DNA of 64,000 nucleotides, taken from Candidatus Moraniibacteriota bacterium. GTDB lineage: Bacteria; Patescibacteriota; Minisyncoccia; Moranbacterales; DUUL01. Both the position numbers and the translations under genes were made by a program. Under the pieces are notes generated by a model that was given only the letters and a program-made list of their open reading frames with translations, was not told the origin of the DNA and did not search any database. Of this stretch, positions 16,446-33,757 are shown piece after piece. The stretch covers positions 5,280 to 69,279 of the forward strand of contig JBFHIG010000004.1 in assembly GCA_041596615.1 (NCBI GenBank). Reading direction: 5' to 3'. Positions within the stretch are counted from its first letter, which is position 1, and each line of letters starts with the position of its first letter.

Positions 16446-19271
16446 TTATAAGGCCTTATTTAATTTAACAGCATAAGCTAACCCAAATAAAATACTCCAG
16501 ATTAAAACCATTGCGATTGCTAATCTAATCACAAATAGTAAATAGTGTGGGGCATTGTTTATAGAAGATGCTAGGTATTGCTTAAGTGTTGTGTCTTGGG
16601 CTAATGCCATATTAAAAGCAACCTTAACTGAAATCGAAGTGTCTTTTGCTAAAGTATGCGTATCAATAATTCTCCAGGTATCTTTTAACATTTCCACGTA
16701 TTCATTTACTCCTCCTGAGGAAAAATTCTTAATAATTCTAGCTTTAAGATCAATTCCACTTCCAAGGGTCATATCCGGAGGAATTGTAAAAGTAATTTGA
16801 TCACCAGCTACCACTGTATTTAATTGCATCACATTATCTGCAATAAAATCTGCATCAACCTCCCTATTGTTAATATACCAAACCAAATCAACCTCGTTGT
16901 CGTCTTGAACGGCATCAGTATTGATAATCATATATCTTGGCACCGCAACGGCCCTAAAAGTAACCGTGGTACTATTGTCAGCTTCAAAAATTTCATTTGA
17001 GGCTGTTCCATCAAACCTTTCTGTGGCAACAGCTCCCGCAACTGGTTCTATTACAGCTTTTGGGTTTGAAATTGACAAGAGTCTTTGTGAGATAAAGTCC
17101 GTTGCCCCATCCGTAGAATTCGATCTTTTGTTTGAAACAGATATTGAGGCTGTTGAATCTTCGGACCCTCTTACTGTGAAAAAAACTTCTTCTTCTGGTG
17201 TTGTTCCGCAACCAACTCCACCAGAAATTCGACAATTAACCACTGATTCAATTTGACCACTGTTTATATTCCAGGCATATCTATCAAAAGGGGCTGTTCC
17301 ATCAGCAGTAACCGCTTCTGCAACCAATACTTCGTAGGGATATACCGGGCATATATCTTTGTATAAATCTGTGTTACAAATTTGTGGTCCTCTTGTCCAC
17401 ACTCCACCATTTCTTATTGCCTTATACAAATTCATTGCCACAACATTTTTGGTAACAGGGAAATAAATTTTTTCAATTGCCCCAACCGTTCTGCCATCTG
17501 GATCAGTTGCTATGCCACCAGCCAGTGATTCATGTTCACTAACTATAACACTAACTCTCAACCAAACCTTATTATCACCGGCTGGTAAGGCTGGTAACCC
17601 AGCAACAGCACCAAAAATAGCACTTGTGGGGAAGAATTTTAATTCTCTAACACCCATGCCTTCAGTAAATGTTTCGTATATCAGACTTGCGTTTGGAATG
17701 GGGTGATTACAATCAGTAAAGTCATTGCCATTACAACGATCCACTTGCCAACTATAAAATAGAAAGTCTTCATTAACAACCTCGTTACTCATACTTGCAT
17801 TAACAGTTATAAGATCAGACCTCTTCTGTTCAACAACTGGTTCTACGGCATCAAATTGAGGATTTTCTGGGATAACACTTAATTCTGGATCAAGTATATT
17901 CCCCCCTACTTCATTTACTGGAACCGTGGAAAGATAATTAAAGCCCCAATCACTATTACCAGGTTCGCAACCATCATCGTCTAACGGCCCACCCGATGCC
18001 AGTCGCAATCTCATACTGTCATCATGATTTGAACATATTCCAGTTGTTGCCCACATTATTTTATAATAAGCGTTCAATTCTCCACTCCCAGTAGTTACTC
18101 CTGAGCCAAAAGCTTCTGTAATGCTATTATCACAAGAATCGTAGTTTGCCATTCCGTCATTATATGCTGTCATATCAGCGTCTATAAGATCACTTCCAAA
18201 ATTTAAACTAGCTGGTAAAAAAGTTGAGCAAAAGGCTGAAGCTTGAGCGCTAGTAGCAAAAAGTCGCACAACCCCTGTTGTTGGATCAGTGACATTAAAA
18301 CCTTCGACTATAGACTCTTCCATTTCTCCACCTTCTGAAATTGGAAGCATTGATGTCCCCTCAACAACAAGTCCCACTTCATCTCCAGGTCTATAAATCC
18401 AGGTAAATTGGGTTTGATTTAGTCCAGCTAGATCAGCTTCATCCTCAATTCCATCGCTATCAGTGTCTGAATTTGTTGGGTCTGTGCCCCAACATTCTTC
18501 TTCGGCCACGTCAAAATCTCCATCACCTATACGCCCAACACCACACCTTGCAAACTCATGACTACATCTTTTAATTTCATCTCTTCCGGCTCTTGCATCC
18601 TGCTCAGAATCTCCCATATTTTCACTACCAACTTGTTTGCCAAAGTTATGTCTATAACATCTGGTTATTGCGCTATATCTCACTATCTGTTTTTTAGCAT
18701 CAAACATAACTGACGGATCATCATCAAATTCTCCCACACCATCTCCCAATTTAGCACCAACACCGTCAGAACCTCCATAACTAGCATCAAAACCATCATC
18801 ATCTTCTAGCGCTGGGGGAATAGTTCCATAGTTTATATTAAATAAAGTTGGGTCAAAATTTCCCCTTGCTATAATTCCCATAGCCTCTCTTTTTCCTGCC
18901 TCAATCGTATTTAAGGCCCTGCCTTCGTTATCATGATGAACAATATACCAGGTATAGTAAAGGTCACCCATATCCGTTCGAAAACCTTTTGGAGCAGAAA
19001 GTGCTGTTACTTTTTCCCCTTCTTTTGGGTCTGTTTTATTGAAAGTAATCTCCACCGTTGGAGCTATTACCTTCTTGCCAGCTCTTCTAAGCGCATCTTT
19101 ATCAAACCCATATCTATCTTCCATACACTCAGACATTCTATTGAGATCCACCGTCGCTCCTTTTGTGGCGCTAACCTGACACTGAGCCTCTGCAAAAACG
19201 TTGTTTGTTTTTAATAAAAATATTGCCAGCGCCACAAAGCAAACTTTTGCTATTTTTTTGTATTTTTTCAT
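16446..19271 (-). CDS. Large (941 aa) Cys-rich secreted/surface protein with a thrombospondin-type-3-like repeat and a C-terminal TM anchor
   Basis: Signal peptide MKKYKKIAKVCFVALAIFLLKTNNVFA, WGTDPTNSDTDSDGIEDEADLAG (DxDxDG Ca-binding type), many Cys residues, and a C-terminal TM (LLFVIRLAIAMVLIWSILFGLAYAV). Confidence 0.6.
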   Translation of the reverse strand: MKKYKKIAKVCFVALAIFLLKTNNVFAEAQCQVSATKGATVDLNRMSECMEDRYGFDKDALRRAGKKVIAPTVEITFNKTDPKEGEKVTALSAPKGFRTDMGDLYYTWYIVHHDNEGRALNTIEAGKREAMGIIARGNFDPTLFNINYGTIPPALEDDDGFDASYGGSDGVGAKLGDGVGEFDDDPSVMFDAKKQIVRYSAITRCYRHNFGKQVGSENMGDSEQDARAGRDEIKRCSHEFARCGVGRIGDGDFDVAEEECWGTDPTNSDTDSDGIEDEADLAGLNQTQFTWIYRPGDEVGLVVEGTSMLPISEGGEMEESIVEGFNVTDPTTGVVRLFATSAQASAFCSTFLPASLNFGSDLIDADMTAYNDGMANYDSCDNSITEAFGSGVTTGSGELNAYYKIMWATTGICSNHDDSMRLRLASGGPLDDDGCEPGNSDWGFNYLSTVPVNEVGGNILDPELSVIPENPQFDAVEPVVEQKRSDLITVNASMSNEVVNEDFLFYSWQVDRCNGNDFTDCNHPIPNASLIYETFTEGMGVRELKFFPTSAIFGAVAGLPALPAGDNKVWLRVSVIVSEHESLAGGIATDPDGRTVGAIEKIYFPVTKNVVAMNLYKAIRNGGVWTRGPQICNTDLYKDICPVYPYEVLVAEAVTADGTAPFDRYAWNINSGQIESVVNCRISGGVGCGTTPEEEVFFTVRGSEDSTASISVSNKRSNSTDGATDFISQRLLSISNPKAVIEPVAGAVATERFDGTASNEIFEADNSTTVTFRAVAVPRYMIINTDAVQDDNEVDLVWYINNREVDADFIADNVMQLNTVVAGDQITFTIPPDMTLGSGIDLKARIIKNFSSGGVNEYVEMLKDTWRIIDTHTLAKDTSISVKVAFNMALAQDTTLKQYLASSINNAPHYLLFVIRLAIAMVLIWSILFGLAYAVKLNKAL

Positions 19272-19309: not shown

Positions 19310-19990
19310 CTATGAAATAAATTGCGAATAAAAATAAATATCTAGTATTAATAAATATATCCAATGAAATACTGTTGAGACAAAAATTGATTTATTTTTA
19401 TAAGCAATAAATCCAAAAAATATGTTTGGGATTATTATTAAAAGCATGCTCTGCGCTGATATCATTCCTCCAACACCCAACTCATAGAACAAAAAAAAGA
19501 AAGCCTGCGCGATAATAGCAAAACTTGCTCCCATAATCGAGGTCAATCCTTTCATCACAAATCCTCTAAAAAAGAATTCTTTTGCTAAAATTACAATGGG
19601 GAGAACAAAAAGGTCAACAAAGAGTATTAACTTAACATCTTTCATCATTATCCAAGAAGAAATCCTTAAGCTTTCTTGCCAGTTTAATTTTACCACAAAA
19701 AGTGTCATCAGCGCAATAAAAATAACCATGGCTATCAAAGAAACTCCTACGCTCTTCAAGGTTAACTTGCTTTTAAGAAAATATTCCTTTGGATTTTCTT
19801 TGAGAATTTTTTTAATAATAAAAAACGGTGCCACAAATAGGAGGAATATTGAAGTAATCATCCACTCGAAGATTCCTCCCAACTTAACATCTCTTAGAAA
19901 AAAGTTTGTTAAAAAAATAACCAACCCTAGGTTTACTAGAATTATCAAAAATAGAATTTTTTTATTTTTTATTTTTTTATTTTTTATCAT
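19310..19990 (-). CDS. CPBP (CAAX/Abi) family intramembrane glutamic protease
   Basis: Multi-TM with EFFFRG (EExxxR-type motif 1) and FHWIYL (motif with conserved His). The first ATG is at 19990; the track start at 19993 is GTG. Confidence 0.7.
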   Translation of the reverse strand: MIKNKKIKNKKILFLIILVNLGLVIFLTNFFLRDVKLGGIFEWMITSIFLLFVAPFFIIKKILKENPKEYFLKSKLTLKSVGVSLIAMVIFIALMTLFVVKLNWQESLRISSWIMMKDVKLILFVDLFVLPIVILAKEFFFRGFVMKGLTSIMGASFAIIAQAFFFLFYELGVGGMISAQSMLLIIIPNIFFGFIAYKNKSIFVSTVFHWIYLLILDIYFYSQFIS

Positions 19991-20013
19991 CACTAGTTTT
20001 TTTCTTTTTATTC

Positions 20014-20682
20014 TTAGGTAGATTCAATTGCCATTCCTAATTCTCTATATTTTATCTTGGCCCTTTCTGCTCTTTTCTTTAAAACATGACTCGCATGCAT
20101 AACACAAATAATATTTAATGGTAACAGTCCGACAACAGGAATGATTTCCAAGAATAACAAAAGGGCTCTTATTGCTTTAATTTTCCAGTTTCCAGATCCC
20201 CAAAGCATTATAAAAAGCACCGGAGTGAAAATAAAGCTTGTTACAAAGGCCAATACCGGTATCCAATCAAAAACAAAATCCATAAAAAAAGCTAGGATAT
20301 AGGCAACTTGTACTGCCGTATTATCGCCCTCTCTCATCTGTCTTCTTAGCTTAACTCCAAGTTCGACAACTCTAACTGGGAGCATCACTTTTGAACCAGT
20401 TGCTGCTTTGTGGATACTTTTTGCCGCCATTATTCTAGTATCCTCTTCCCTTTTTATTGATTGATTATATTGCTCCCCATCCACACCATTTCTGTCTATT
20501 TTATAGTTATCATGCCTTGCCTGTTGGAGCTTATTATAATCCTCTATCTCCTTCGCCTTTCTTGTTTCTTGCTCCATTGCATGTGTATAAAGAGGCTTTT
20601 TTGAAAAGCTTGATCTTGCGCTCTTATTTATGTTTTTTTCTCTTTTATCAAACATACCCAAATAGTTATTAACTTTAAACAC
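20014..20682 (-). CDS. Membrane protein of unknown function (charged N-terminal half, 3 C-terminal TM segments)
   Basis: ORF 9 nt downstream of the virB4 stop. The start at 20682 is GTG and the first ATG is at 20655, so the start is uncertain. Confidence 0.45.
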   Translation of the reverse strand: MFKVNNYLGMFDKREKNINKSARSSFSKKPLYTHAMEQETRKAKEIEDYNKLQQARHDNYKIDRNGVDGEQYNQSIKREEDTRIMAAKSIHKAATGSKVMLPVRVVELGVKLRRQMREGDNTAVQVAYILAFFMDFVFDWIPVLAFVTSFIFTPVLFIMLWGSGNWKIKAIRALLLFLEIIPVVGLLPLNIICVMHASHVLKKRAERAKIKYRELGMAIEST

Positions 20683-20691
20683 CTTGTTTCA

Positions 20692-22557
20692 CTAAACCTC
20701 TTCTTCTTCTTTTTCTTTTTCAATTTGAATTCGTTGAGCAGGATTTGTTGTAATTAATTTATCCTCGTCATATGATGCCACAACTTGTATTGCCGCTCTT
20801 TTTAGGCCTGCAAAGAAAATACCCTCTCCCACACCACAGTCCATTAAAAGATATTTTTCTCTATCTGTTAAATAAAAAGTGTCTGCAATAACATCAATGG
20901 CCGATTGCGATTGTTTCATTAATAGTTGTATAGAGGAATTTGAAACAATTGGCTTCCCATATTTAGAGGACATAAAATCTGAAATATCCTGAGTAATAGT
21001 TGTTAGTCCACCATAATATTTTCTGATTCTTTTTGCTACCATAAACAAAAATCTTGCAGCCTCGTCATGCTCCATCATTCTCCAAGCCTCATCAACAACA
21101 ATCAATCTCTTTTTAACATTAATTCGGACTTCTTTCCAAATATAATTTAGAATCATGTACATTGCCATCGGTCTTAGTTCTTCCTCCAAGTCTCTGATAT
21201 TGAAAACTACCAATTGATTGTCCAGTGAAATGTTTGTTCTGTTATTTAAAAAGCCAGAAAAAATTCCTTTTGTATATTTTTCTAATCTAATCGTGATATC
21301 CTCAACGCCCTTCATGTTTGAAAGAACTTCATAAAGATCAAGCAAAACAGGCATGGTCCTGTCTTTTAGATCATCTAAAGGGGTGTCTTCTGTAATATCT
21401 CTAACCGCATAAGTTTCCCTAATTGCTTGTTCTAAAATTGACTCCTCTTCCGGTGTTAAGGTCCCTAACATCAGCTTTAAAAGTCCCAACAACGAAGATA
21501 TTGTGCTTCTAATTACATCTTCAACCTCAACACCCTTCTCCATTGATAAATCAAAAGGATTAATGTGGTTTTTTGTATTCAAAGAAATTCTTAGGTAAGA
21601 ACCTCCTACTGTTTCTGTGAGATATTTATACTCATCTTCAGGATCAACAATAATGGCACTTGCCCCCATCATAAGTGAACGTAAGATTTCCAATTTAACA
21701 GTATAACTTTTTCCGGCTCCCGACTTAGCAAAAACCACCATATTTGCGTTTTCCATAGAAAAGCGATCAAATAAAATCAATGAGTTGTTGTGTCGATTTA
21801 TTCCGTATAAGATTCCTTGATTAGAGGTCACATCAGCAGAAACAAAAGGGAAAGTTGTTGAAAGTGGAGATGTATTTAGGGCATTACCGTTAAGTAATTT
21901 ATCAACACCAAGTGGTATCGTAGAAACAAACCCTTCTTTCATTCTAAAAATAGACCTTTTTGTATATACTGAGCGCGCATTTAATAAGGATTCTAACATA
22001 ATTGTGTTCTTATCTAGAGCATCCTTAGTTTCTCCAAATACATTGAAATATAATCCAAACTTAAAAAATCTTTCTGAACCTTCTTGCAGTTGATCTCTTA
22101 AAGTTTCAACATTACTATATGCCATTTCCAAGATAGGATCTCTTGTTAGCCCTTTTTCAGATTCAATGTTCATTTCTGATTGAATTTGAGTAACTTTTTT
22201 TCTTAACTTCTTAAGAATAGTTCCTGTGTCAACAGGATAGATAAACATCGATATGTCCAAAGGAAGGTTAATCCCAATAACTGGATTCATCCAGCCCATA
22301 GCAAGTGCCCTAGGATATGCAGCTACAAAAAGCGTTCTACAGAAAGTGTCTCCTATTTGCAAATTTGAACTTGAAACCCCAAAAGCAGAGGGTGAGATCA
22401 GATCAATAACCCTGGCTAGCCCCTCTCGGTAAAGCCTTTCTTTGTTCAGCAAATCAGATGAAGTTTCTTCTTTGATGTCTGCTTGAGATAAAACAGAACT
22501 TTTATTAGAAACTTCTTTGCCGTTTTTTGTTTTTCCGAACTTAGGTAATCCTATCAT
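20692..22557 (-). CDS. virB4: VirB4/TraE-type T4SS ATPase, middle and C-terminal ATPase portion
   Basis: LQIGDTFCRTLFVAAYPRAL (typical Gram-positive VirB4 segment), Walker A VVFAKSGAGKSYTVK and Walker B LIVVDEAWRMM; 621 aa. Confidence 0.85.
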   Translation of the reverse strand: MIGLPKFGKTKNGKEVSNKSSVLSQADIKEETSSDLLNKERLYREGLARVIDLISPSAFGVSSSNLQIGDTFCRTLFVAAYPRALAMGWMNPVIGINLPLDISMFIYPVDTGTILKKLRKKVTQIQSEMNIESEKGLTRDPILEMAYSNVETLRDQLQEGSERFFKFGLYFNVFGETKDALDKNTIMLESLLNARSVYTKRSIFRMKEGFVSTIPLGVDKLLNGNALNTSPLSTTFPFVSADVTSNQGILYGINRHNNSLILFDRFSMENANMVVFAKSGAGKSYTVKLEILRSLMMGASAIIVDPEDEYKYLTETVGGSYLRISLNTKNHINPFDLSMEKGVEVEDVIRSTISSLLGLLKLMLGTLTPEEESILEQAIRETYAVRDITEDTPLDDLKDRTMPVLLDLYEVLSNMKGVEDITIRLEKYTKGIFSGFLNNRTNISLDNQLVVFNIRDLEEELRPMAMYMILNYIWKEVRINVKKRLIVVDEAWRMMEHDEAARFLFMVAKRIRKYYGGLTTITQDISDFMSSKYGKPIVSNSSIQLLMKQSQSAIDVIADTFYLTDREKYLLMDCGVGEGIFFAGLKRAAIQVVASYDEDKLITTNPAQRIQIEKEKEEEEV

Positions 22558-22566
22558 ATTTTTAAA

Positions 22567-23232
22567 TTATTCCCTTTCAATATTTAGATCTTCTAGCGTT
22601 GGAATTGCTACGTGTTCAAACTCCGAAGGATTATAACAGTTATAATACATTTCAATTAACTCTTGGGTGTTTAATGCTACAATCCTAATCCCACTTCCAG
22701 AGAGAGATTCTTTGATTTCCTCGACTCTTTGAAATAGTTGATTTTTATATGTTTCAAACTGCTCTCTTTCTTGATAAATATTCTTTTGGGGTGTTAGTTT
22801 TGCAAGCATATTATCGATAAAACCTGTTTTTTTTGATTCTACTGCATAAAAAGGCACTACAATATAAAACAGTTTCGACATAATATTTGAAACATTAACC
22901 AATTCTCCCACAAAATTCAAGTAGTCCTCGATTTGATTTCTAAGTAAAACGTTTCTTTCTGTGTCTTTTTTTCTCTCAAGCATTTCTAGATATGGTTTGA
23001 TATCGAATTTTCTAGTAGAAATTACAATTTGAATTGGAAAATCAAGTGAATTTAAGAAGCGTTGATAAGCGAAAACAATAGCCTCTTGTTCAGTGCTTGA
23101 TTTCAAGTCAAAATTAATAGATGAAACAGCCAAAACAGCCCTCAAGGAACCGTCTTTAACTATAACTGCTCCGTCTTTAATCTCTGAAACATTCAATTCT
23201 TCTTGCATACTAAAATTTCCCGCTCCTTCCAT
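22567..23232 (-). CDS. VirB4 N-terminal-domain-like protein encoded as a separate ORF
   Basis: IKDGAVIVKDGSLRAVLAVSSINFDLKSSTEQEAIVFAYQRFLNSLDFPIQIVI resembles the N-terminal domain of Gram-positive conjugative VirB4/TcpF/Orf16-type ATPases. It is in the same frame as 20692..22557 and separated from it by a single TAA. The first ATG is at 23232; the track start at 23253 is TTG. Confidence 0.6.
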   Translation of the reverse strand: MEGAGNFSMQEELNVSEIKDGAVIVKDGSLRAVLAVSSINFDLKSSTEQEAIVFAYQRFLNSLDFPIQIVISTRKFDIKPYLEMLERKKDTERNVLLRNQIEDYLNFVGELVNVSNIMSKLFYIVVPFYAVESKKTGFIDNMLAKLTPQKNIYQEREQFETYKNQLFQRVEEIKESLSGSGIRIVALNTQELIEMYYNCYNPSEFEHVAIPTLEDLNIERE

Positions 23233-23249
23233 AAAACTATATTTAATAA

Positions 23250-23666
23250 TCAAATTTTACTATTTGTGTCCAATAAATCAGCTAGACTCTTTGAACTTTT
23301 CAATTCCTTTTCTTTAATATATCTGTTGATAGACGCTTTTTCATTTTTCCTTGCCGTTCTTTTTATTGGTCTTTGTGTTTCGTTTTGAATATTTCTGTGC
23401 CAAGTTAAAACTTTGGGTTTAAATAAATATAAAATTCCGTTTATTATAAACTGTAGAAATGTTAACCCTGCTGGTTTATAAAAAGCAAAAGCAAGAGAAA
23501 GTAAAATAACTGGTATTCCAAAAAGTATTAGGGCTGGCATAGAACCCATTTGCCATAAAAAAAACAATCCTGCCGCTCCAAGACCCAACCAGCTTAGCTG
23601 TTTTATTGTCAATTGAAAAGCAAGCTTATCTTCAACCTCAATATACTGTGGAACATTAAAATTCAT
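23250..23666 (-). CDS. PrgI-family (VirB3-like) small membrane protein
   Basis: MNFNVPQYIEVEDKLAFQLTIKQLSWLGLGAAGLFFLW followed by a second TM. This matches the PrgI-family N-terminal signature and its position directly upstream of VirB4. Confidence 0.6.
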   Translation of the reverse strand: MNFNVPQYIEVEDKLAFQLTIKQLSWLGLGAAGLFFLWQMGSMPALILFGIPVILLSLAFAFYKPAGLTFLQFIINGILYLFKPKVLTWHRNIQNETQRPIKRTARKNEKASINRYIKEKELKSSKSLADLLDTNSKI

Positions 23667-23678
23667 ATCCTTTTTTTA

Positions 23679-24632
23679 TTAGATATCCTTTAAATTTATA
23701 GTGTGCTTCGATTGTATTCTTTCTTTATTTTGCAAAGCCTCTTTTTTCTTAAATTCTTCACTTTCCTTTTCTTTTTTTGTATCTTTTTTAAGGTTTTCTC
23801 CTCCCAAAACTTCTTTGGTAAGGGGGTTTTTTTTATCCTTTAATAATTCTTCTTCCTCCTTTTTTATAAACTCCCTTAATTTTATTGAAATTTCTTCCTC
23901 CTTATTATTAAATAAAATTAATTTTCTATCCGCATCAATTTCCAGTTCATTATTCTCGTCATATGATTCCAAAACAAGCAAAAGTTCTTTTTTTTCCAAA
24001 AATGTAAGTTTGCTAATATTTTTGGAATTGAAAATATAATCACTTCTTTCCAGGTTGTTGTGTGGTTGTGAGCCTTTTTGTATCGTATAGTCATCCAGCC
24101 AATTGTTTATTGTCTGTTTCTTAAACTCATCTTCTCCAAAAATTTTTATTTTATTCTCTCCTATCAACTGGTCCCCTATTTCTGGAAATTTTTTCAGTGC
24201 TGGAATTAAAGGGCTTTTTTCTATCCTTACTTCCGCACCACCACTTTCCATTTCAACAATCTTCTTTCGCAATTTAAAAAGTTCAATAACCAGTTTCTCT
24301 GTTTCATTTTCGCCAAGTTTTATTCTCTGATTAATTCTTCTTCTTATTCCCTCCTCATCAAAAAATCCTTCTACAAAAGAATCCCTAATAATCCTTGATA
24401 TTTCACCAACTTCTTCTGCTCGATAAAAATCAAATTTCTTTGCAATTTCAATAACAGCATCTTCTGTTGTTTTCGAAACTAGTCCTAATTTAATTTGATA
24501 TGAGAGTTTGTTATAAATTTCCAGCCAACAAATTTCATCCTTCTCTGTGTCTTCTTTGGGATTCCAATGCACACTTGCACTCATAGGGCAAGCTTGCTCT
24601 CTTATTAATCTTTCACTTTCTGTTTCTGACAT
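23679..24632 (-). CDS. Hypothetical soluble protein with a Lys/Glu-rich C-terminus (T4SS-like locus)
   Basis: 317-aa ORF with an ATG start and gaps of 12-14 nt to its neighbours. No motif recognised. Confidence 0.45.
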   Translation of the reverse strand: MSETESERLIREQACPMSASVHWNPKEDTEKDEICWLEIYNKLSYQIKLGLVSKTTEDAVIEIAKKFDFYRAEEVGEISRIIRDSFVEGFFDEEGIRRRINQRIKLGENETEKLVIELFKLRKKIVEMESGGAEVRIEKSPLIPALKKFPEIGDQLIGENKIKIFGEDEFKKQTINNWLDDYTIQKGSQPHNNLERSDYIFNSKNISKLTFLEKKELLLVLESYDENNELEIDADRKLILFNNKEEEISIKLREFIKKEEEELLKDKKNPLTKEVLGGENLKKDTKKEKESEEFKKKEALQNKERIQSKHTINLKDI

Positions 24633-24646
24633 TTTTATTTTTCAAA

Positions 24647-26659
24647 TTATTCATTCATATCCCTCATTGCATCCTTTTCATCTCGTCCCGATAATTTTTC
24701 TCCCGTTGCAGTTGAAATAAACTTTTTTAGAGCTCCTTGTTTTTCAGCATCGGTGTTTTTGGCCAAATGCTCCATTAGTTGTTCACGAGTAAATCTGCTA
24801 TCTCCTGCTGCTTGTTTTCTTTTTATATACTCTGCAACGTTTTTATCCTTAAGAAATCCAACTGATTGATCTGTTATTTCTGACAATTTCATTTTCCCTA
24901 GTTGCTCTTCATAAACACTTTCCCTATATCTTCCTTCTTCTGTTCTCCTAAATATATCCTCCTCGTCACTTGTCATCAGAGAACCTCTCCTGGTGTTTTC
25001 ATTGACAATCTTCTTGTTTATTTCCGCAGACATCTCTGACTCAATTTTGTGCTCTATCATCGCTCCTCTGTTTTTCTTTCTGGCAAGGGTTTCAAATTTA
25101 TTCAAAGTCTCTGGACTGTCCTTAAATAACTCACGTGCTCTAGCATAACTATCATCTCCAAGAGATCCGTCAGGATTTCTTGTCATATTCAATTTTCCAT
25201 TTTCTGCCAATTTCATTGCGGCAGCTTTTTTCTTAGCGTTTAATTGAGCTGTGGTGTCGGCCCCTTTCCCTCCAAAATAATTTGCAACTGTGTTTTTAGA
25301 TGATGGTTGTTCTACTAAAATTTTCTTTAATTCATCTTCGCTTGGAACACCATTTTCATCCCAATCTTTCATCTGTTCTCGTTGTAAATTCTGTTCATGA
25401 GCAGTTTTTGCAGATTTGCTGCCCAATTGAGCTCGTTTGGAAAGCATTCTTGCTTCTTTATTTTCTTTGAAATCAGCTTTTTTATTTTGGACATAAGCCT
25501 TTCCATAACCAAGGCCATATCCAGCGGTTCCAATAAAAGCAGCTCCTTTCGCTAATTTTCCAGCCTTTCCTAGACCCCAAGCAGCGCCATCCCCGGCTTG
25601 ATTTGCAATTTTCTTAGAAAGATCAAAGCCATAGAAAAGCATGTATATACATGAAAAATATGGAATAAAAATCTTAAGTGCCCCAATAACAAAACCTGTT
25701 TTATTGTTCCCTGCTATCTCCATCTCTGCGCTACTTAATCCCACATTTAAACTGACAGCACTAACCAAAACAATTGCCAACCAAAGGAAAAACAACATTA
25801 CTGGACCAAAAGCACACCAATAAGTCAATTTATTAAACCAGGTCGTCTTGATGTTTCCAATTGCTGTTCCTGGAAGCGCTAGTGCAAAAAATGCCAAAGG
25901 AGAAAGAATAATCAAAACCCATAAAGCCACCAGTCTAATAACAAGAGACAATCCTAATGCCAAAAGCATAATTCCCATAATAAATTTAAAAATCGCTTCA
26001 ACAATCCAACTCATATATCTTGCCTCATTAGAAGCGGTCTCACTTTTAAAAGCCTGCCCCATTCCAGTCGCACTCATTAGTGCTGATGAATAGCTGGTAT
26101 TGCCCTCTCTAATATTGCTCATAAAAAATGACATCGCTAAGTTCGAGATATCAATAATAAAAAGCGTAATTGGTTTTGAAAAATTTACAAACAAAGCTGC
26201 TGAAATCACGTATACTACAAATTTCTTATCTGAATATTTATTGATTTTTAAAATAGTTGCAATTGCCACAAAAATCAAAATTAAAATAAAAAACATATTA
26301 ACAAAATCCCTCACCAAACCCCAACCTGTGTTGATGGCAGTAAGTGCGGTTCCTTGAAAAAAAATCTCATCATATAGTTCATCAGACATCACTAAATCAA
26401 CCACGGACATACCTATACTCAAAACAAGTCCGCCAAAAGCTTGAAAAAGGTGAAGAACCCCTTCTATTAAGTTAGTTCCCATATTTAAAGGGTTGTATTT
26501 ACTAAGTCCTTTTCCATATTCAGCGCCTCCTGCTACCACCCGATCTTGTTGTCTCTCCCAGGCCTGTGCTTGTAGTTGGTTTACTGTGAAAAAGGAAACC
26601 ACTATTAATATAAATAATATTGCCTTAAACCAGTTTTTTTTGTTTTTGAAAGATATCAT
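24647..26659 (-). CDS. VirB6/TrbL-like polytopic membrane protein with a ~290-aa hydrophilic C-terminal extension
   Basis: Signal/TM1 followed by at least 7 TM segments and a long charged tail. The call rests on topology and operon context only. Confidence 0.5.
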   Translation of the reverse strand: MISFKNKKNWFKAILFILIVVSFFTVNQLQAQAWERQQDRVVAGGAEYGKGLSKYNPLNMGTNLIEGVLHLFQAFGGLVLSIGMSVVDLVMSDELYDEIFFQGTALTAINTGWGLVRDFVNMFFILILIFVAIATILKINKYSDKKFVVYVISAALFVNFSKPITLFIIDISNLAMSFFMSNIREGNTSYSSALMSATGMGQAFKSETASNEARYMSWIVEAIFKFIMGIMLLALGLSLVIRLVALWVLIILSPLAFFALALPGTAIGNIKTTWFNKLTYWCAFGPVMLFFLWLAIVLVSAVSLNVGLSSAEMEIAGNNKTGFVIGALKIFIPYFSCIYMLFYGFDLSKKIANQAGDGAAWGLGKAGKLAKGAAFIGTAGYGLGYGKAYVQNKKADFKENKEARMLSKRAQLGSKSAKTAHEQNLQREQMKDWDENGVPSEDELKKILVEQPSSKNTVANYFGGKGADTTAQLNAKKKAAAMKLAENGKLNMTRNPDGSLGDDSYARARELFKDSPETLNKFETLARKKNRGAMIEHKIESEMSAEINKKIVNENTRRGSLMTSDEEDIFRRTEEGRYRESVYEEQLGKMKLSEITDQSVGFLKDKNVAEYIKRKQAAGDSRFTREQLMEHLAKNTDAEKQGALKKFISTATGEKLSGRDEKDAMRDMNE

Positions 26660-26670
26660 TTTTGTGCTTT

Positions 26671-27582
26671 TTAGATTGTGAGACCTTTTTTAATTTTATC
26701 TTGAAGTTTTTTTACTCCATCATCACCAATGGTTCTTTGTATTTTTCTAGCCTCATTGTTAATTGGCTTTGAAACAACACTAATTCCACTTTTAATAAAT
26801 GATGTAGTCGAAGAAACTACAAAGCTTGCTATTACCTCTTCTAGGGAACTGGCATTATTTATCATTTCAATTGGCATTGTTTCTGCAGCAGAAATAATCT
26901 CTTGAGAAATTTTTCCTGGTATTACCTTGTTTCCATTCACAACTGTATTAAATCCACTACCAGCAATTGCTTCAGCTTGTTGCGCTTCCGCTGCTTGGTA
27001 GGCTGCGTTGTCTACAATATTTTTCGAATTAATATATGCACTCGTTGAGTTATTGTACTCACCAAACTGATAAGAAAGAAGAGCTCCTACTCCCCCACCC
27101 TTTGTTTGATCGAAAACATCTCCTATTGGATCATCTGAATCAACAAATTCATGAAGTGTTACCTCTGGTTGTCCGGGGGAAATTTGATTACTTATTGATT
27201 GTTCAACATTTCTAAGCATATCTCTTTCTGAGGTCGAGGCTCCTACTTGAATAACAGAAAAAAAGTCCGTCAATTTATCCTCCGCTGCAACCTGCGCTGA
27301 TCCAAAAATAAAATCTTCATAGTTAGTAATAACCATACTTTCTCCAGAGGAACCACCTACAGCTTTTTCCAAGGCGCCCCTAATCATATTATTAGCTTCT
27401 TTTTTCATTGTTTGAAGAATCGTTTTTCTTAAAACAACAAAAACTTGCTCCAAAACTTGTTTCATTAGAGCAGAGCCCACATTTGTTCCCCAAGCATCTC
27501 CAATTGCTCTTGTTGGGTTAATTGTTGCAAAAATAGAAACCATTATAATTACAGTTGCTATTATTTTTTTTGTTTTTATCAT
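26671..27582 (-). CDS. Secreted protein of unknown function (T4SS-like locus)
   Basis: Signal peptide MIKTKKIIATVIIMVSIFATINPTRA; Ala/Ser/Gln-rich, with no TM after the signal peptide. Confidence 0.5.
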   Translation of the reverse strand: MIKTKKIIATVIIMVSIFATINPTRAIGDAWGTNVGSALMKQVLEQVFVVLRKTILQTMKKEANNMIRGALEKAVGGSSGESMVITNYEDFIFGSAQVAAEDKLTDFFSVIQVGASTSERDMLRNVEQSISNQISPGQPEVTLHEFVDSDDPIGDVFDQTKGGGVGALLSYQFGEYNNSTSAYINSKNIVDNAAYQAAEAQQAEAIAGSGFNTVVNGNKVIPGKISQEIISAAETMPIEMINNASSLEEVIASFVVSSTTSFIKSGISVVSKPINNEARKIQRTIGDDGVKKLQDKIKKGLTI

Positions 27583-27629
27583 TTTTGCTCTATAAATAAG
27601 AGTTATGCTTTAATTTAATATCCAACTTT

Positions 27630-28799
27630 CTATAAATCATACAGGTCATACATTGATGAAGAGCTCATCATTTGATCTATATCCATTGAACCTGCTATAT
27701 CTGAAATATCAAAAGAATCAATACCAAATTGATCTAAAATATTTGTTGTGTCAGAACCCAATATATCAACCTCGGACATAACTGCTTGTACCTTTCCAAG
27801 CATAGAAACCAATTCAACTGGATCATCTTCATCTGTTGCAATTGTTTCATCTTGACTAAGCATATATTTTTGCAAAGACAACCCCATTTTGTGAATATCT
27901 TTTAATACATATGGGACCTCTAGATCTTTAATTTTTTCATAAATAACCTCAGATGTTCCTTTTAGATCTGTAAGGTTTGAAGAATCTCCATCTTCAATAT
28001 CACTTCCCATACCAGTTATCAAGCTGGTTGCAATTCCCATCATATTTCCACTGTCCTGGAAAAGATAAGGAGCTTCTTCGAATATTATATAACCCACTTG
28101 CACAAAATATTCTTCCACAGCAGCCTTTTCTTCTTCAAGTGTTTGATCATTTTTTTCCGTTACTTCTTCTTGAATATTTAGTTCTTCATCTGAGATAACC
28201 TCCAATTCGTCATCAAGATTAACTTCTTTAATTGTTTTTTCAACAATAGCCTGCACCTCTTCTTCTGTTAATGAATATTTCACAACATCTCCCGACTCTT
28301 TGATTGTTTTGAGAATTTCTTTATCAACACTGGCTTGATTAAGCAACTCCAATTCCTCCTTTTTCTGTTCCTTGATATTTTTCAAAAAAACCTCCGTTGC
28401 ATTTATGTTATTCTTTGCACCATCTTCAGTATTTTTCACAGTACCTGTTTTTTCTTCAAGACCCTCAATCACTTCAGTGGACTCACCTGTTTTGTTTTTT
28501 GTTGTTGTATTTAAAAGATTCTTCATTTCTTCTGAATTTCCTACCTTTTTTACCAATGGATCAAATCCTCCCTCAACCTCAACTCCATCAGAATACCCAT
28601 CTTCATCAGTATCTGCCTTGTTGGGATCCGTTCCGAGTGCCATTTCTTCTTGATTTGTCAACCCATCACCATCTAAATCTTCGAAATAATTTAATTTATT
28701 TTCATCTGCGTGTGAAAATTGAATCCAAGCAAAAGCAAGCATAGCAAAAAACACAGCCCCTTTTTTGATTGGTAATTCAAAAGTATTCTTTTTTTTCAT
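27630..28799 (-). CDS. Highly acidic secreted protein with thrombospondin-type-3-like Ca-binding repeats; first gene of the T4SS-like array
   Basis: Signal peptide, then DLDGDGLTNQEEMALGTDPNKADTDEDGYSDGVE, followed by a long Asp/Glu-rich region. Confidence 0.6.
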   Translation of the reverse strand: MKKKNTFELPIKKGAVFFAMLAFAWIQFSHADENKLNYFEDLDGDGLTNQEEMALGTDPNKADTDEDGYSDGVEVEGGFDPLVKKVGNSEEMKNLLNTTTKNKTGESTEVIEGLEEKTGTVKNTEDGAKNNINATEVFLKNIKEQKKEELELLNQASVDKEILKTIKESGDVVKYSLTEEEVQAIVEKTIKEVNLDDELEVISDEELNIQEEVTEKNDQTLEEEKAAVEEYFVQVGYIIFEEAPYLFQDSGNMMGIATSLITGMGSDIEDGDSSNLTDLKGTSEVIYEKIKDLEVPYVLKDIHKMGLSLQKYMLSQDETIATDEDDPVELVSMLGKVQAVMSEVDILGSDTTNILDQFGIDSFDISDIAGSMDIDQMMSSSSMYDLYDL

Positions 28800-28905: not shown

Positions 28906-30537
28906 TTAAAAAAAAGTTATTAATATAAGCAACCCTAAATATATAAGAACTGTCAACAAAATCCACCAATTTAGATTTCTTACTTTTATTTTTTTGTTAT
29001 TTAAAATCCAATAATCAATCGCCCCAAAAATTACAGCTATTAACCAAAGTCTTTTTTCATTCAAAACAACAATTGAGGTTATATAGCTGATAAATATTGC
29101 CACCCCAAAAAAAAGTCTTGCGTTTTCCTCTCCCAGTATAGTTGGAATTGTTGTTACTTCATTTTCTCTATCACCTTCAATATCCTTAATATCCTTAATT
29201 GGTAATAAAAAGGTGTATACAATAAATAAAAAAAGAGCTATTTTCCAAGGAAATTTTTCCAGAGACTGCCCCTCAGAAACAACAATAAAACCCATAAATA
29301 GAAACAGCATAGATGCTGCAGAGGATACTACGCCAGAAACAAAAACAATTCTTTTCAATCTTAATGGTCTACAAGAATAAACCCAGGTTATTAATAAATA
29401 AGCGCAAATTATTAGAAAAAATTTAGAACCAACAACTATAGCTGTCAAAAGAGACATTGTCATTGGAATAAGAGCGAGATTCAAATATTCCTCCTTTGAA
29501 AAAATTTTTTTAATTAAAGGCCTTTCTGTATTTGTAATTTCGTCAATTTTTTCATCTTCTATATCATTAATAAAAACTGAATAAAACCATGCACATAAAA
29601 TTGAAATTAAGAGATTTACTATTACCAAGAAAGCGAATATATCAAAAGGTTTAATTTGTTTGAAATAAAAATAACCAATTGCTAAACCAGTAAAAAACAT
29701 CCCCCCATTAAAAAACATCTGTGGATATCTAATATTTTTTATTAAAGCAAATAACTTTTTTTTATTTAAAATAAATTGCAATAAAATTAAATTTCCGAAT
29801 AAGATTATTGTGTAAAAAAGTGCTGATCTAAGATGAAGAGACACTTTCATTGATTTTTTGTCAAAATTAAAAAGCTCCAAAGAGGTTAAAAAGGTTGAAG
29901 CTATATCACTACCATTTACTTTAAAAATATTTTCCCCTGAAATTCCTTTTATTAAAAATGTTAATAAACTGGGGAAAATTGCAAAAATATATAATATTAC
30001 ATAAACAATAAAAATTCCCAAAAAACCTTTTAACCAACTTCTTTTTTTAATTCCTATATATAAACCAATTCCTAACGTTGCCAATAAAATTCCCGCCCTA
30101 GTTCCATATGTAATTCCAAAAGAAGGATTATCTCCGAAAAAATAAAAAAACTTCTTAAAAAGCCCTGCTATATTATCAAAAAGATAAAAACTCCAAAAAT
30201 CTTTTTCTTTGAAAATAATTTTATCAATAATCGGTGGCAGCACCATAACCCAGTGTCCCCATAATAAAAAAGTTGCTAATTTTGAAATTTTTTCCTTTGT
30301 AAAAATAACCAAAAAAGTTAAAAGAACTACATATACCATTAAAAAAAATAAAAAAGTTCCACTCACTAGAGATCCTACTAAATAAGAAAATTCATGTGTT
30401 TTAAAACCAAATAAAGCACTTTCAATTATATATCTAACAGCAACAATTAAAATAAAAGATATTAAAAATGTTTTTATTGTTATTGGTCCTCTTTCTAGAA
30501 ATTTAAATATTTTCTCAATACTGTTTATTATTTTCAT
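28906..30537 (-). CDS. UbiA-family prenyltransferase domain fused to a ~300-aa N-terminal polytopic membrane region
   Basis: The C-terminal half has NDIEDEKID and DIKDIEGDRE, the two Asp-rich UbiA motifs. The protein is multi-TM throughout. Confidence 0.65.
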   Translation of the reverse strand: MKIINSIEKIFKFLERGPITIKTFLISFILIVAVRYIIESALFGFKTHEFSYLVGSLVSGTFLFFLMVYVVLLTFLVIFTKEKISKLATFLLWGHWVMVLPPIIDKIIFKEKDFWSFYLFDNIAGLFKKFFYFFGDNPSFGITYGTRAGILLATLGIGLYIGIKKRSWLKGFLGIFIVYVILYIFAIFPSLLTFLIKGISGENIFKVNGSDIASTFLTSLELFNFDKKSMKVSLHLRSALFYTIILFGNLILLQFILNKKKLFALIKNIRYPQMFFNGGMFFTGLAIGYFYFKQIKPFDIFAFLVIVNLLISILCAWFYSVFINDIEDEKIDEITNTERPLIKKIFSKEEYLNLALIPMTMSLLTAIVVGSKFFLIICAYLLITWVYSCRPLRLKRIVFVSGVVSSAASMLFLFMGFIVVSEGQSLEKFPWKIALFLFIVYTFLLPIKDIKDIEGDRENEVTTIPTILGEENARLFFGVAIFISYITSIVVLNEKRLWLIAVIFGAIDYWILNNKKIKVRNLNWWILLTVLIYLGLLILITFF

Positions 30538-30846: not shown

Positions 30847-31995
30847 TTATGATTTTATAATAGGCATAATGACATAAGAAAAGGATTCATCTATTTCTCC
30901 TTTTGTTTTTATTCTCTTAAAAATCACTGGTGATTTTTGTTTATTTAATTTAATTAACACTTTTTCACAATCAAATAAAACACTTGATAATCCTTCAAGA
31001 ATGAATCTGCAGTTAAATAATATTTCAAACTCCGTGCCAGTTATTTTTGCTGGAATTTTCGAAAGGTTATCTCCAGAATCCATTGATTGGGCTGTTATTA
31101 ATAAAGCATCTAATTCTTTTGTGTTTTTAAAATTAACTTCTCCATTTTGCGAATTTGTTACCAATGAAGCAATTTTAACAGCATTTATTAATTTTTCCTT
31201 TTCCACTTCAAGTTCTATATCAAATTTCTTAGGTAAAACCTGTTTATATTCTGGATAGTTTCCATTTATTAACCTTGAAACTATTTTAATTTCACTTGTG
31301 CTTATAAACAATTGATTTTGTTCAATAACAATATTAATTTCCTCATCCCTTGCAATTCTTTGCACCTCCATTAAAGCTAGAGCTGGAATAATAATAGCTG
31401 CTTTTTTTTCTTTGAAATTATCAAAACCCTCCCCATCCTCAATTTTTATCCCTTCAATATCAATTTCAGTTAATCTAAAACTATCTGTTGATGCAAGTGT
31501 TATGGAATTATTTTTAAATTTCATTAATATTCCATTTAACTCCTGCCTCGTATCATTGTGTGCAACAGAAACAAGCACTCCTGATATTGCTTTGTTTATT
31601 TTCTTAGGTTCAATAGAAAAAAATGCTTCATCTGGAACATCCGGGATAATCGGGAAATCTTTTGCGTCAATCCCTTTTATTTTAATTTTATGATTTTCTG
31701 TTGTTATTTTTAATTCCGATCCCTCAAGTTCACCAGAAACAACCTCATCTTTAATGGTGTTCAAAAAACCACCCACAATCCTTGCAGGAATTGTAATACT
31801 TCCCTCTTTCTCTATTTTAGCACCTATATAAACCTTAATAGCTATTTCAAGATTCGTAGCAGCTAATACAAGTCTCCCTTTTTCTGATGAAATTAAAATA
31901 TTCCCTAATATCGGAAGTGTTGTTTGTTTTGAAACAATTCTTTCAACCTTTGATATTCCCTCTTTTAAATTAATGGTTTTGCAAGTAAATTTCAT
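30847..31995 (-). CDS. dnaN: DNA polymerase III beta sliding clamp
   Basis: MKFTCKTINLKEGISKVERIVSKQTTLPILGNILI, 382 aa with a three-domain length, and ends ...SYVIMPI. It lies adjacent to dnaA. Confidence 0.9.
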   Translation of the reverse strand: MKFTCKTINLKEGISKVERIVSKQTTLPILGNILISSEKGRLVLAATNLEIAIKVYIGAKIEKEGSITIPARIVGGFLNTIKDEVVSGELEGSELKITTENHKIKIKGIDAKDFPIIPDVPDEAFFSIEPKKINKAISGVLVSVAHNDTRQELNGILMKFKNNSITLASTDSFRLTEIDIEGIKIEDGEGFDNFKEKKAAIIIPALALMEVQRIARDEEINIVIEQNQLFISTSEIKIVSRLINGNYPEYKQVLPKKFDIELEVEKEKLINAVKIASLVTNSQNGEVNFKNTKELDALLITAQSMDSGDNLSKIPAKITGTEFEILFNCRFILEGLSSVLFDCEKVLIKLNKQKSPVIFKRIKTKGEIDESFSYVIMPIIKS

Positions 31996-32198
31996 TTTCT
32001 GTAATTATTTAATAATATCTATTTATATATCTTATTATTATTATTATCTATTAGACAACAAAATATGTGTATAAGTCTAAAAAATTCTTTAAATAAGCTT
32101 AAATTTATGTTTATAAATTTAACAAATATTGAAGTCTTTGTTGTTAATCAATTTGTTGAAAACTCAAATATCTTTAAAATTTTGAATTTTCGAAAAAG

Positions 32199-33679: not shown

Positions 33680-33757
33680 TTTTGTGCTTTTTAAGATTCA
33701 ACAATTCTTATTGTAGAGGACTTCTTTGCTTTTATCAATAAACCAAAAGATTGAAAA

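Follow-up and report, generated by a model that had tools for sequence, protein, structure and literature searches.

VirB4 is encoded by two adjoining genes

The in-frame TAA at positions 22567-22569 (minus strand) of the analysed stretch of 64,000 nucleotides, here called the window, very probably serves a TrsD-like gene as its normal stop codon. Together with the ATPase gene that follows, this gene would form a genuine, ancient two-gene VirB4 within a chromosomal type IV secretion cluster of Patescibacteria (Moranbacteria-like). Such a two-gene VirB4, composed of TrsD plus ATPase, is already known. A genuine two-subunit protein had been one of four explanations offered in an earlier note on this DNA. 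It is favoured here by the presence of the split in 76 of 76 relatives, in pSK41 and in Bacillota plasmids, and by the homology of the upstream ORF to VirB4 N-termini.

On the minus strand the junction reads ...ATT GAA AGG GAA TAA TTT AAA AAT ATG ATA GGA..., with the TAA followed by three sense codons (F-K-N) and an ATG at 22555-22557. The ORF list places a 228-aa ORF with a TTG start at 22567..23253(-) and a 621-aa ORF in the same frame at 20692..22557(-). This reading confirmed the initial observation that a single stop and three sense codons separate two ORFs in one frame. The transcription given at the time was right for the stop, the spacer and the ATG, and had only miscopied ATA as ATT (both Ile), which is of no consequence. 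A database protein 100% identical to the upstream ORF (P0001; found in two sources, ncbi and Logan) is 221 aa long, and the true start is therefore likely the ATG at 23232. The N-terminal ~200 residues and the ATPase, which a one-piece VirB4 carries in one ORF, are separated here by the TAA. The features of the locus are:

23250..23666, minus strand: VirB3-like (PrgI/TcpE-family) small membrane protein, 138 aa, directly upstream of the TrsD-like gene (Pfam PrgI PF12666)
22567..23232, minus strand: probable TrsD-like gene, 221 aa, ending with TAA 22567-22569 (NCBIfam TrsD/TraD and VirB4_plasma profiles, homologues, fold)
22558..22566, minus strand: intergenic spacer TTTAAAAAT of 9 nt, rich in A/T, from the TrsD-like stop to the VirB4 start (read directly)
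20692..22557, minus strand: VirB4-like ATPase gene, 621 aa (NCBIfam CD1110-family VirB4, Pfam, 4AG5)

The split is conserved in relatives but the reading frame is not

An alignment with orthologous loci had been proposed as a check on the stop. In our set of relatives, 76 analysable species-level genomes reaching down to about 50% identity, two adjoining separate genes were found in every case (76/76). The upstream gene ended with TAA in 57, TAG in 15 and TGA in 4 of them. The reading frame varied, with offsets of 0, 1 and 2 in 30, 25 and 21 relatives, respectively (chi-square 1.6, 2 df, p about 0.45). Because two adjoining genes have a one-in-three prior of sharing a frame and the relatives are distributed accordingly, the common frame at this locus is at chance level and is a coincidence.

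A recent nonsense mutation that has just broken a one-piece virB4 and left an incipient pseudogene would account for the one stop and three codons between same-frame ORFs, and one-piece relatives (P0240 and P0257) do exist. This option is nevertheless extremely improbable, as a stop is present in all 76 relatives and in distant Bacillota plasmids, and as the downstream ORF possesses its own ATG followed by an N-terminus common to the relatives. Both halves also gave low dN/dS values. Compared with L001, an independent metagenome-assembled genome (MAG), dN/dS was 0.039 for the upstream and 0.031 for the downstream ORF; across the comparisons with L001-L003 it was 0.03-0.10 for both halves, and about 0.03-0.05 where dS exceeded 1. 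These values show strong purifying selection on both ORFs.

The same junction was found in L001, including an identical 9-nt spacer TTTAAAAAT, where other relatives have distances from -32 to 535 nt. The window probably derives from a MAG itself, and the surroundings of the stop are rich in A/T; both points would fit an assembly or base-call error that created a false stop. Such an error can be practically discounted, given that the junction recurs in this independent assembly, that the identical 221-aa P0001 comes from two sources and that the split is universal in the relatives.

Programmed stop-codon readthrough or recoding, by which the TAA would be partly or fully decoded to yield a full-length VirB4 of ~846 aa, draws on the in-frame single-stop junction that the window and L001 (93% identical protein) share without any difference, although dS is about 1.1-1.25. 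As a conserved feature it is contradicted by the relatives, which use all three frames as well as overlaps and spacers of up to 535 nt: 46 of the 76 are out of frame, and 17 of the 30 in-frame junctions contain 2-8 in-frame stops. TAA is moreover the commonest stop codon of long ORFs in the window (29 of 44, followed by TAG with 9 and TGA with 6), and this usage rules out a reassignment of TAA and indicates the standard code. No readthrough element was apparent at the junction, and the TAA is followed by T; in E. coli, translation terminates efficiently at UAAU. Taken together, recoding is highly improbable. A narrower form concerns the window and L001 alone: their in-frame TAA and 9-nt spacer might allow occasional readthrough, producing a little fused full-length VirB4 beside the two subunits, or, in a milder version, the junction might be constrained as a coupling or initiation element. 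We consider this very unlikely.

The upstream ORF resembles the N-terminal part of VirB4

The upstream ORF aligned with positions 14-200 of the 201 positions of the NCBIfam TrsD/TraD profile (NF041427; E 1.8e-8). Its score of 34.5 bits is far below the curated cut-off of 200 bits, and it is a remote TrsD homologue outside the narrow NF041427 subfamily. It also matched the CD1110 profile at positions 11-101. The VirB4_plasma profile (894 positions) was covered in consecutive segments, 104-280 by the upstream ORF (E 1e-8) and 263-893 by the downstream ORF.

Homologues of the upstream ORF are numerous (6181). The best 120 of these 6181 are all stand-alone proteins of 211-257 aa, and only 2 of the best 150 50%-identity representatives have fused length. 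The two fused relatives, P0240 and P0257, match the upstream ORF at E 1e-36 and 2e-35 and align collinearly with the N-ORF and then the C-ORF, at identities of 41/39% and 50/49%; the TrsD-like module occupies their residues 9-213 or 14-212. PF26593 is precomputed for P0001 and for all 120 listed homologues, while the upstream ORF itself was assigned to no family by the local copy of Pfam.

Fold comparison pointed in the same direction. The top 14 PDB matches of the AF2 model (pLDDT 77.5) are chains of R388 TrwK/VirB4 with probabilities of 0.99-1.0; the match itself is modest (TM 0.35-0.48, E about 1e-3), and the TrwK residues aligned were not reported by the tool. TrwK was reached by fold comparison only, since neither the N-ORF sequence by itself nor a 13-sequence profile gave anything meaningful in sequence searches of the PDB. 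As the abutting matches to a single profile, the collinear fused relatives and a fold matching only R388 TrwK/VirB4 all agree, we identify the product of the upstream ORF as TrsD-like; its homologous part in a one-piece VirB4 is the first ~200 residues. Its initial description as VirB4 N-domain-like was thus upheld by profiles (VirB4_plasma, CD1110), fused relatives and fold alike.

Some members of the upstream-ORF family carry additional N- or C-terminal extensions. The N-terminally extended members were considered as candidate VirB3-TrsD fusions, and this idea was dropped after the extension of P0243 displayed no BLASTP similarity to the PrgI-like protein, a weak test on one protein.

The break lies within the N-terminal domain

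The downstream ORF is a CD1110-family VirB4 with a P-loop NTPase C-terminal domain (CTD). It scored 355.5 bits against the corresponding NCBIfam family (NF045971; cut-off 325, E 6e-106, positions 180-728 of 752), matched the Pfam families P-loop_TraG, DUF87 and AAA_10, and shows in its translation the Walker A motif GAGKS and the Walker B motif LIVVDEAW. The VirB4 CTD structure 4AG5 aligned with residues 243-598 (E 1.5e-45), and a weak CagE_TrbE_VirB match covered residues 67-215, the second half of the N-terminal domain (NTD). The ORF thus begins with an unconserved linker of ~45 aa, continues with the second NTD half and ends with the P-loop CTD (~243-598).

The suggestion that the split might coincide with the known NTD/CTD boundary did not hold. 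Because the CTD defined by 4AG5 begins only some 243 residues into the downstream ORF, the break lies inside the VirB4 NTD, about 240 residues upstream of that boundary. It was shown to fall in the poorly conserved linker.

Translation starts lack Shine-Dalgarno sequences

SD-like motifs were absent at 34 of 46 candidate starts in the window, and real upstream regions bound the anti-SD sequence no better than shuffled ones. The sequence GAAAGGGAA at the end of the upstream ORF was considered as a hidden SD sequence (anti-SD duplex -5.3 kcal/mol). It was rejected: its AAGG core match is positioned 15 nt from the ATG, L001 has GAAAGAGAA in its place, and no genome-wide SD signal rises above that of shuffled sequences. 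The absence of an SD sequence before the downstream ATG, as first noted, therefore stands. It is not unusual, because SD motifs are rare genome-wide; the need for reinitiation or coupling that had been derived from it falls away, since starts without an SD sequence are the rule in the window.

Comparison with other VirB4 systems

Directly upstream of the TrsD-like gene, the 138-aa ORF matched Pfam PrgI (PF12666; E 2.9e-8, 34.6 bits, cut-off 27) and, more weakly, TcpE. When the neighbouring ORFs (670, 317, 312, 222, 941 and 400 aa) were scanned with NCBIfam and Pfam, no type IV secretion family names were returned, and neither a relaxase nor VirD4 was identified among these ORFs.

The same gene order, with the break at a matching position, exists in pSK41 and on plasmids of Bacillota. 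In Geobacillus pGspE55-1 the N-ORF homologue is immediately preceded by a PrgI-family gene; in a Pontibacillus plasmid and in pSK41 (TrsC) this position is occupied by small ORFs that are unnamed or hypothetical. The two-gene junctions overlap in the Pontibacillus and Geobacillus plasmids. Staphylococcal pSK41 resembles our locus in having a small ORF (TrsC, 135 aa), trsD (227 aa) and a 672-aa DUF87 VirB4-like ATPase (TrsE). The trsD-ATPase spacer is likewise short (14 nt), and the break position is equivalent, with C-ORF residue 51 aligning with TrsE residue 35. In contrast to our locus, the two pSK41 genes are in different frames. TrsD/TraD and TrsE/TraE of the staphylococcal conjugative plasmids pSK41/pGO1 belong to an MPF_FATA subclass, and their sequences have diverged strongly from ours (27% identity over 91 aa). 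Furthermore, pSK41 is a conjugative plasmid with relaxase and VirD4, whereas our locus is a chromosomal cluster near oriC.

One-piece VirB4 proteins (R388 TrwK, F TraC, CD1110-family and Mbov_0397-family) are similar in that the two ORFs together cover the full profile collinearly, the downstream ORF matching the CTD (4AG5, TrwK) and the N-ORF fold matching TrwK chains. They differ in being single proteins of ~750-900 aa, whereas two genes with a break within the N-terminal domain are present here.

The closest counterpart is the TrsD and VirB4 pair of Patescibacteria. TrsD next to VirB4 across this phylum was described by Quinonero-Coronel et al. 2025, Microb Genom (PMC12102498), who reported 2272 TrsD homologues, 1664 of them adjoining VirB4, and a remote homology of TrsD to the VirB4 N-terminal portion. 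For the latter they cite Guglielmini et al. 2014, in whose main text the word TrsD is absent. [quoted passage not shown] Our locus is from the same lineage, the relatives used here being Moranbacteria/Patescibacteria MAGs, and it shares with the published pair a TrsD homologue directly upstream of virB4, an adjacent PrgI/VirB3-like gene and nearby dnaA/oriC. With a stand-alone protein of 221 aa encoded 9 nt upstream of virB4 and homologous to the VirB4 N-terminus, it corresponds to the broad class of stand-alone TrsD-like proteins (~200-250 aa) of PMC12102498. Nothing substantive separates the two, and our locus is an instance of that pair.

The TrsD-like protein might alternatively be an independent accessory factor that arose from a VirB4 N-terminal fragment but has since ceased to function within the ATPase; regulation or a place in a different complex are examples of what it might do instead. 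Gracilibacteria TrsD homologues that are not adjacent to virB4 (PMC12102498) would be in line with this, as would the terminal extensions of some family members. We regard such a role as rather unlikely, since adjacency is tight and nearly universal, the order VirB3-like, TrsD, VirB4 is kept across phyla and the fused forms are collinear. In addition, PMC12102498 lists as essential the TrsD homologue that Ca. S. epibionticum ML1 carries beside VirB4.

Model and implications

In the two-subunit arrangement that we favour, the PrgI/VirB3-like, TrsD-like and VirB4 genes would be co-transcribed, and each would be translated from its own start on an A/T-rich, SD-less leader of the kind usual in this genome. 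The TrsD-like protein may then bind non-covalently to both the ATPase and the VirB3-like membrane protein. The resulting complex would rebuild the membrane-proximal N-terminal domain, which in one-piece R388 TrwK is in contact with VirB3 and serves as the membrane anchor of the ATPase hexamer.

When genomes of Patescibacteria and some Bacillota elements are annotated, a stop 'inside' VirB4 is no reason to flag a pseudogene, a frameshift or a sequencing error, and the upstream 'hypothetical protein' of ~220 aa is better named a TrsD-like VirB4 N-terminal module. The collinear fused relatives, the TrwK fold match and the position of the break are added here to PMC12102498 and go only slightly beyond the published work. 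The fused relatives and the fold match make it a concrete, testable hypothesis that TrsD-like proteins are the detached VirB3-binding half of the VirB4 NTD.

Stop and start codons at the virB4 junction

Read directly, the minus strand from 22600 to 22540 contains ATT GAA AGG GAA TAA TTTAAAAAT ATG ATA GGA TTA CCT. The earlier note had reported this junction correctly except for one base (ATT for ATA, Ile either way), and its coordinates and lengths of both ORFs agreed with the sequence and the ORF list.

Features of the junction
22567..23253, minus strand: upstream ORF with TTG start, 228 aa, in the frame of the downstream ORF (mechanical ORF list)
22567-22569, minus strand: upstream stop codon TAA (sequence read)
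22555-22557, minus strand: ATG of the downstream ORF (sequence read)
20692..22557, minus strand: downstream ORF, 621 aa (mechanical ORF list)

Since a database protein 100% identical to the upstream product (P0001) comprises 221 aa, ATG 23232 is most likely the start of the upstream gene. The window uses the standard bacterial code with TAA as preferred stop; stop-to-stop ORFs with 200 codons or more number 44 and end in TAA (29), TAG (9) or TGA (6).

The two ORFs correspond to consecutive parts of VirB4

The downstream ORF scored 355.5 bits against the CD1110-family VirB4 model, passing the curated cut-off of 325, and covered this model from profile position 180 onward only. It contains the Pfam domains P-loop_TraG, DUF87 and AAA_10 and a weak match to CagE_TrbE_VirB (residues 67-215), and the crystallised VirB4 C-terminal domain (4AG5) aligned with its residues 243-598 (E 1.5e-45).

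The upstream ORF had no match in the local Pfam copy. Three NCBIfam models matched it, namely the stand-alone TrsD/TraD model (positions 14-200 of 201, E 1.8e-8), the CD1110 model (positions 11-101) and the mycoplasma VirB4 model of 894 positions, on which the upstream (104-280) and downstream (263-893) ORFs occupy consecutive segments. Furthermore, two database proteins as long as a one-piece VirB4 contain the upstream and then the downstream module in collinear order.

One-piece relatives of the two ORFs
P0240, 797 aa: upstream module at residues 9-213 (41% identity), downstream module at residues 226-787 (50%)
P0257, 898 aa: upstream module at residues 14-212 (39% identity), downstream module at residues 299-888 (49%)

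Because the P0240 match begins only at residue 46 of the downstream ORF, the first ~45 residues of the latter form a poorly conserved linker. The upstream ORF was modelled with AlphaFold2 from a 68-sequence alignment (pLDDT 77.5, pTM 0.63). The 14 best PDB fold matches of this model were all R388 TrwK/VirB4 chains (probability 0.99-1.0, E about 1e-3 to 2e-2, TM 0.35-0.48), below which the list consisted of noise. Profile, fused-relative and fold matches all bear out the VirB4 N-domain assignment on which the earlier note had made its reading depend. The break does not coincide with the NTD/CTD boundary; it lies inside the N-terminal domain, about 240 residues upstream of that boundary.

Some TrsD-family representatives are longer (P0237, P0243, P0251, P0269, P0180 and P0183; 360-480 aa), with extensions of 140-220 aa at the N-terminus or ~200 aa at the C-terminus. 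The N-terminal extension of P0243 showed no BLASTP similarity to the PrgI-like protein of the window.

The genes are separate in all relatives

The upstream ORF matched 6181 database proteins at E 1e-3 or better. The best 120 of these all measured 211-257 aa (identity 53-100%), and all but two of the best 150 representatives of 50%-identity clusters measured 176-478 aa. The closest relatives are Moranbacteria/Patescibacteria MAGs. Both genes were placed by tblastn at 80 loci from different species-level genomes; four loci ending before the ATPase were left out, and in 76/76 remaining relatives the two genes are separate.

Gene arrangement in 76 relatives, and at the loci of three near ones
Relative frame 0/1/2: 30/25/21
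Upstream stop codon: TAA 57, TAG 15, TGA 4
Spacer: from an overlap (-32 nt) up to 535 nt, with a median near 21 (starts called heuristically for 73 relatives, none for the other 3)
In-frame relatives with 2-8 in-frame stops: 17/30
L001: 93% identity, same frame, identical 9-nt spacer
L002: 86% identity, frame +2, 14-nt spacer
L003: 82% identity, frame +1, 10-nt spacer

The frame counts cannot be told from uniform (chi-square 1.6, 2 df, p about 0.45). Since frames and spacers vary even among the nearest relatives, the same-frame, single-stop appearance of the window is a coincidence, and readthrough cannot be the mechanism of this family. Against L001, dN/dS was 0.039 for the upstream and 0.031 for the downstream ORF (Nei-Gojobori, dS about 1.1-1.25); against L002 and L003 values of 0.03-0.10 were obtained where dS could be estimated. 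Both genes are under purifying selection and neither is decaying.

Four explanations had been offered in the earlier note for the in-frame TAA, and one of them holds, a genuine two-gene VirB4. Readthrough at this codon is very improbable given the spread of frames and the multiple stops of many in-frame relatives. A nonsense mutation in VirB4 has a still smaller, negligible probability, as both genes are separate in all 76 relatives and maintained by selection, and the same holds for a sequencing error as source of the stop. These three readings are effectively excluded.

The 15-nt junction (TAA, TTTAAAAAT, ATG) is the same in the window (22555-22569) and in L001 (4664-4678) despite this dS; the initiation region may be under constraint, or the identity may be due to chance in an A/T-rich stretch. 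Many related records (L006, L008, L010, L011 and others) are titled 'uncultured Bdellovibrionales bacterium', and L019 and L032 carry single titles 'Candidatus Bathyarchaeia archaeon' or 'Caldithrix sp.'. In their TrsD/VirB4 genes, these records nevertheless group with Moranbacteria/Patescibacteria, and the titles probably result from mislabelling or contaminated bins.

Translation start

No SD-core match of at least 4 nt was present within 30 nt (-30..-1) of 34/46 candidate starts in the window, and the median predicted anti-SD duplex energy of real upstream regions (-0.9 kcal/mol) equalled that of shuffled ones. Leaders are A/T-rich, as is TTTAAAAAT before the downstream ATG; strong AAGGAGG or AAGGAG motifs occur in few genes only, e.g. 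at starts at about 59007(-) and 34855(-). Within the approximation of a first-ATG heuristic for starts, an SD-less start is the genomic norm and nothing special to this junction, so that reinitiation or coupling need not be invoked, as had been proposed from the missing SD sequence.

The same layout in other systems

Stand-alone homologues of the upstream ORF were found by tblastn in 91 plasmid records, mostly of Bacillota. In a Pontibacillus plasmid, the gene for a 274-aa homologue and that for a 621-aa 'VirB4-like conjugal transfer ATPase, CD1110 family' overlap by 11 nt. Geobacillus pGspE55-1 carries a PrgI-family gene, a 318-aa homologue and a 636-aa DUF87 ATPase (14-nt overlap). The staphylococcal conjugative plasmid pSK41 has a 135-aa ORF followed by trsD (227 aa) and, after a spacer of 14 nt, the gene of a 672-aa DUF87 ATPase (TrsE); its trsD and TrsE genes are in different frames, unlike the window pair. 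Residue 51 of the window ATPase aligns with TrsE residue 35 (25% identity, 606 columns, E 2e-50), and the upstream ORF shares 27% identity with TrsD over 91 aa (E 9e-7). These alignments place the two breaks at homologous positions.

The locus is an instance of the published TrsD-VirB4 architecture and the arrangement is already known. Quinonero-Coronel et al. 2025 (PMC12102498) place TrsD in the pGO1-type MPF_FATA subclass and rank it as the most abundant Patescibacteria T4SS component: 2221 assemblies contained 2272 homologues, and 1664 of these were associated with VirB4. The paper gives no assigned function for TrsD, and the homologue beside VirB4 in Ca. S. epibionticum ML1 appears there as essential. 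A full-text literature search found no functional or structural study on TrsD and VirB4.

Genomic setting

The window (G+C ~33%) spans the chromosomal replication origin, because dnaN and dnaA adjoin the minimum of the cumulative GC skew, which coincides with a switch of coding strand (about 34-36 kb). For the same reason the T4SS cluster is chromosomal and origin-proximal; it lies 6-17 kb from dnaA, in agreement with the frequent near-origin placement of Patescibacteria T4SS (PMC12102498).

Other genes in the window
16446-19271, minus strand: ORF, 941 aa, N-terminal signal-like segment, no Pfam/NCBIfam match
19310-19993, minus strand: membrane protein of the Rce1-like CAAX protease family, second gene downstream from virB4
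20014-20682, minus strand: ORF, 222 aa, no Pfam/NCBIfam match
23679-24632, minus strand: ORF, 317 aa, no Pfam/NCBIfam match
24647-26659, minus strand: ORF, 670 aa, many hydrophobic segments, no Pfam/NCBIfam match
26671-27609, minus strand: ORF, 312 aa, no Pfam/NCBIfam match
27630-28799, minus strand: protein with bacterial TSP3 (thrombospondin type 3) repeats, upstream of the cluster
28906-30537, minus strand: UbiA-family prenyltransferase, 543 aa, ~300-aa region without match
30847-32004, minus strand: dnaN
32279-33697, minus strand: dnaA
35960-38098, plus strand: CCA-adding/poly(A) polymerase-family enzyme, 712 aa, ~260-aa N-terminal region without Pfam match

The five family-less ORFs lie inside or flank the T4SS cluster. 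By position, the 670-aa protein is a candidate VirB6-like channel protein. The polymerase-family enzyme and the prenyltransferase are both unusually long for their families.

A two-gene VirB4

The junction separates two independently terminated and initiated genes. By sequence comparison, the first is a homologue of the first ~200 VirB4 residues and the second comprises the linker and the remainder of the NTD together with the ATPase CTD. The pair sits straight after the PrgI/VirB3-like gene and both members are conserved. We consider a genuine conserved two-gene VirB4 highly probable.

In the R388 inner-membrane complex the VirB4 NTD contacts VirB3. On the basis of this contact, the gene order and the collinear fusions, it is moderately likely that the TrsD-like protein joins the ATPase and the VirB3-like protein in a non-covalent assembly, thereby completing the membrane-proximal NTD. 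The main rival, in which the TrsD-like protein has become an independent accessory factor, is rather unlikely. Under the two-gene reading, the locus should not be called a pseudogene and the upstream ORF should be named TrsD-like; moreover, a testable hypothesis on the function of TrsD is sharpened.
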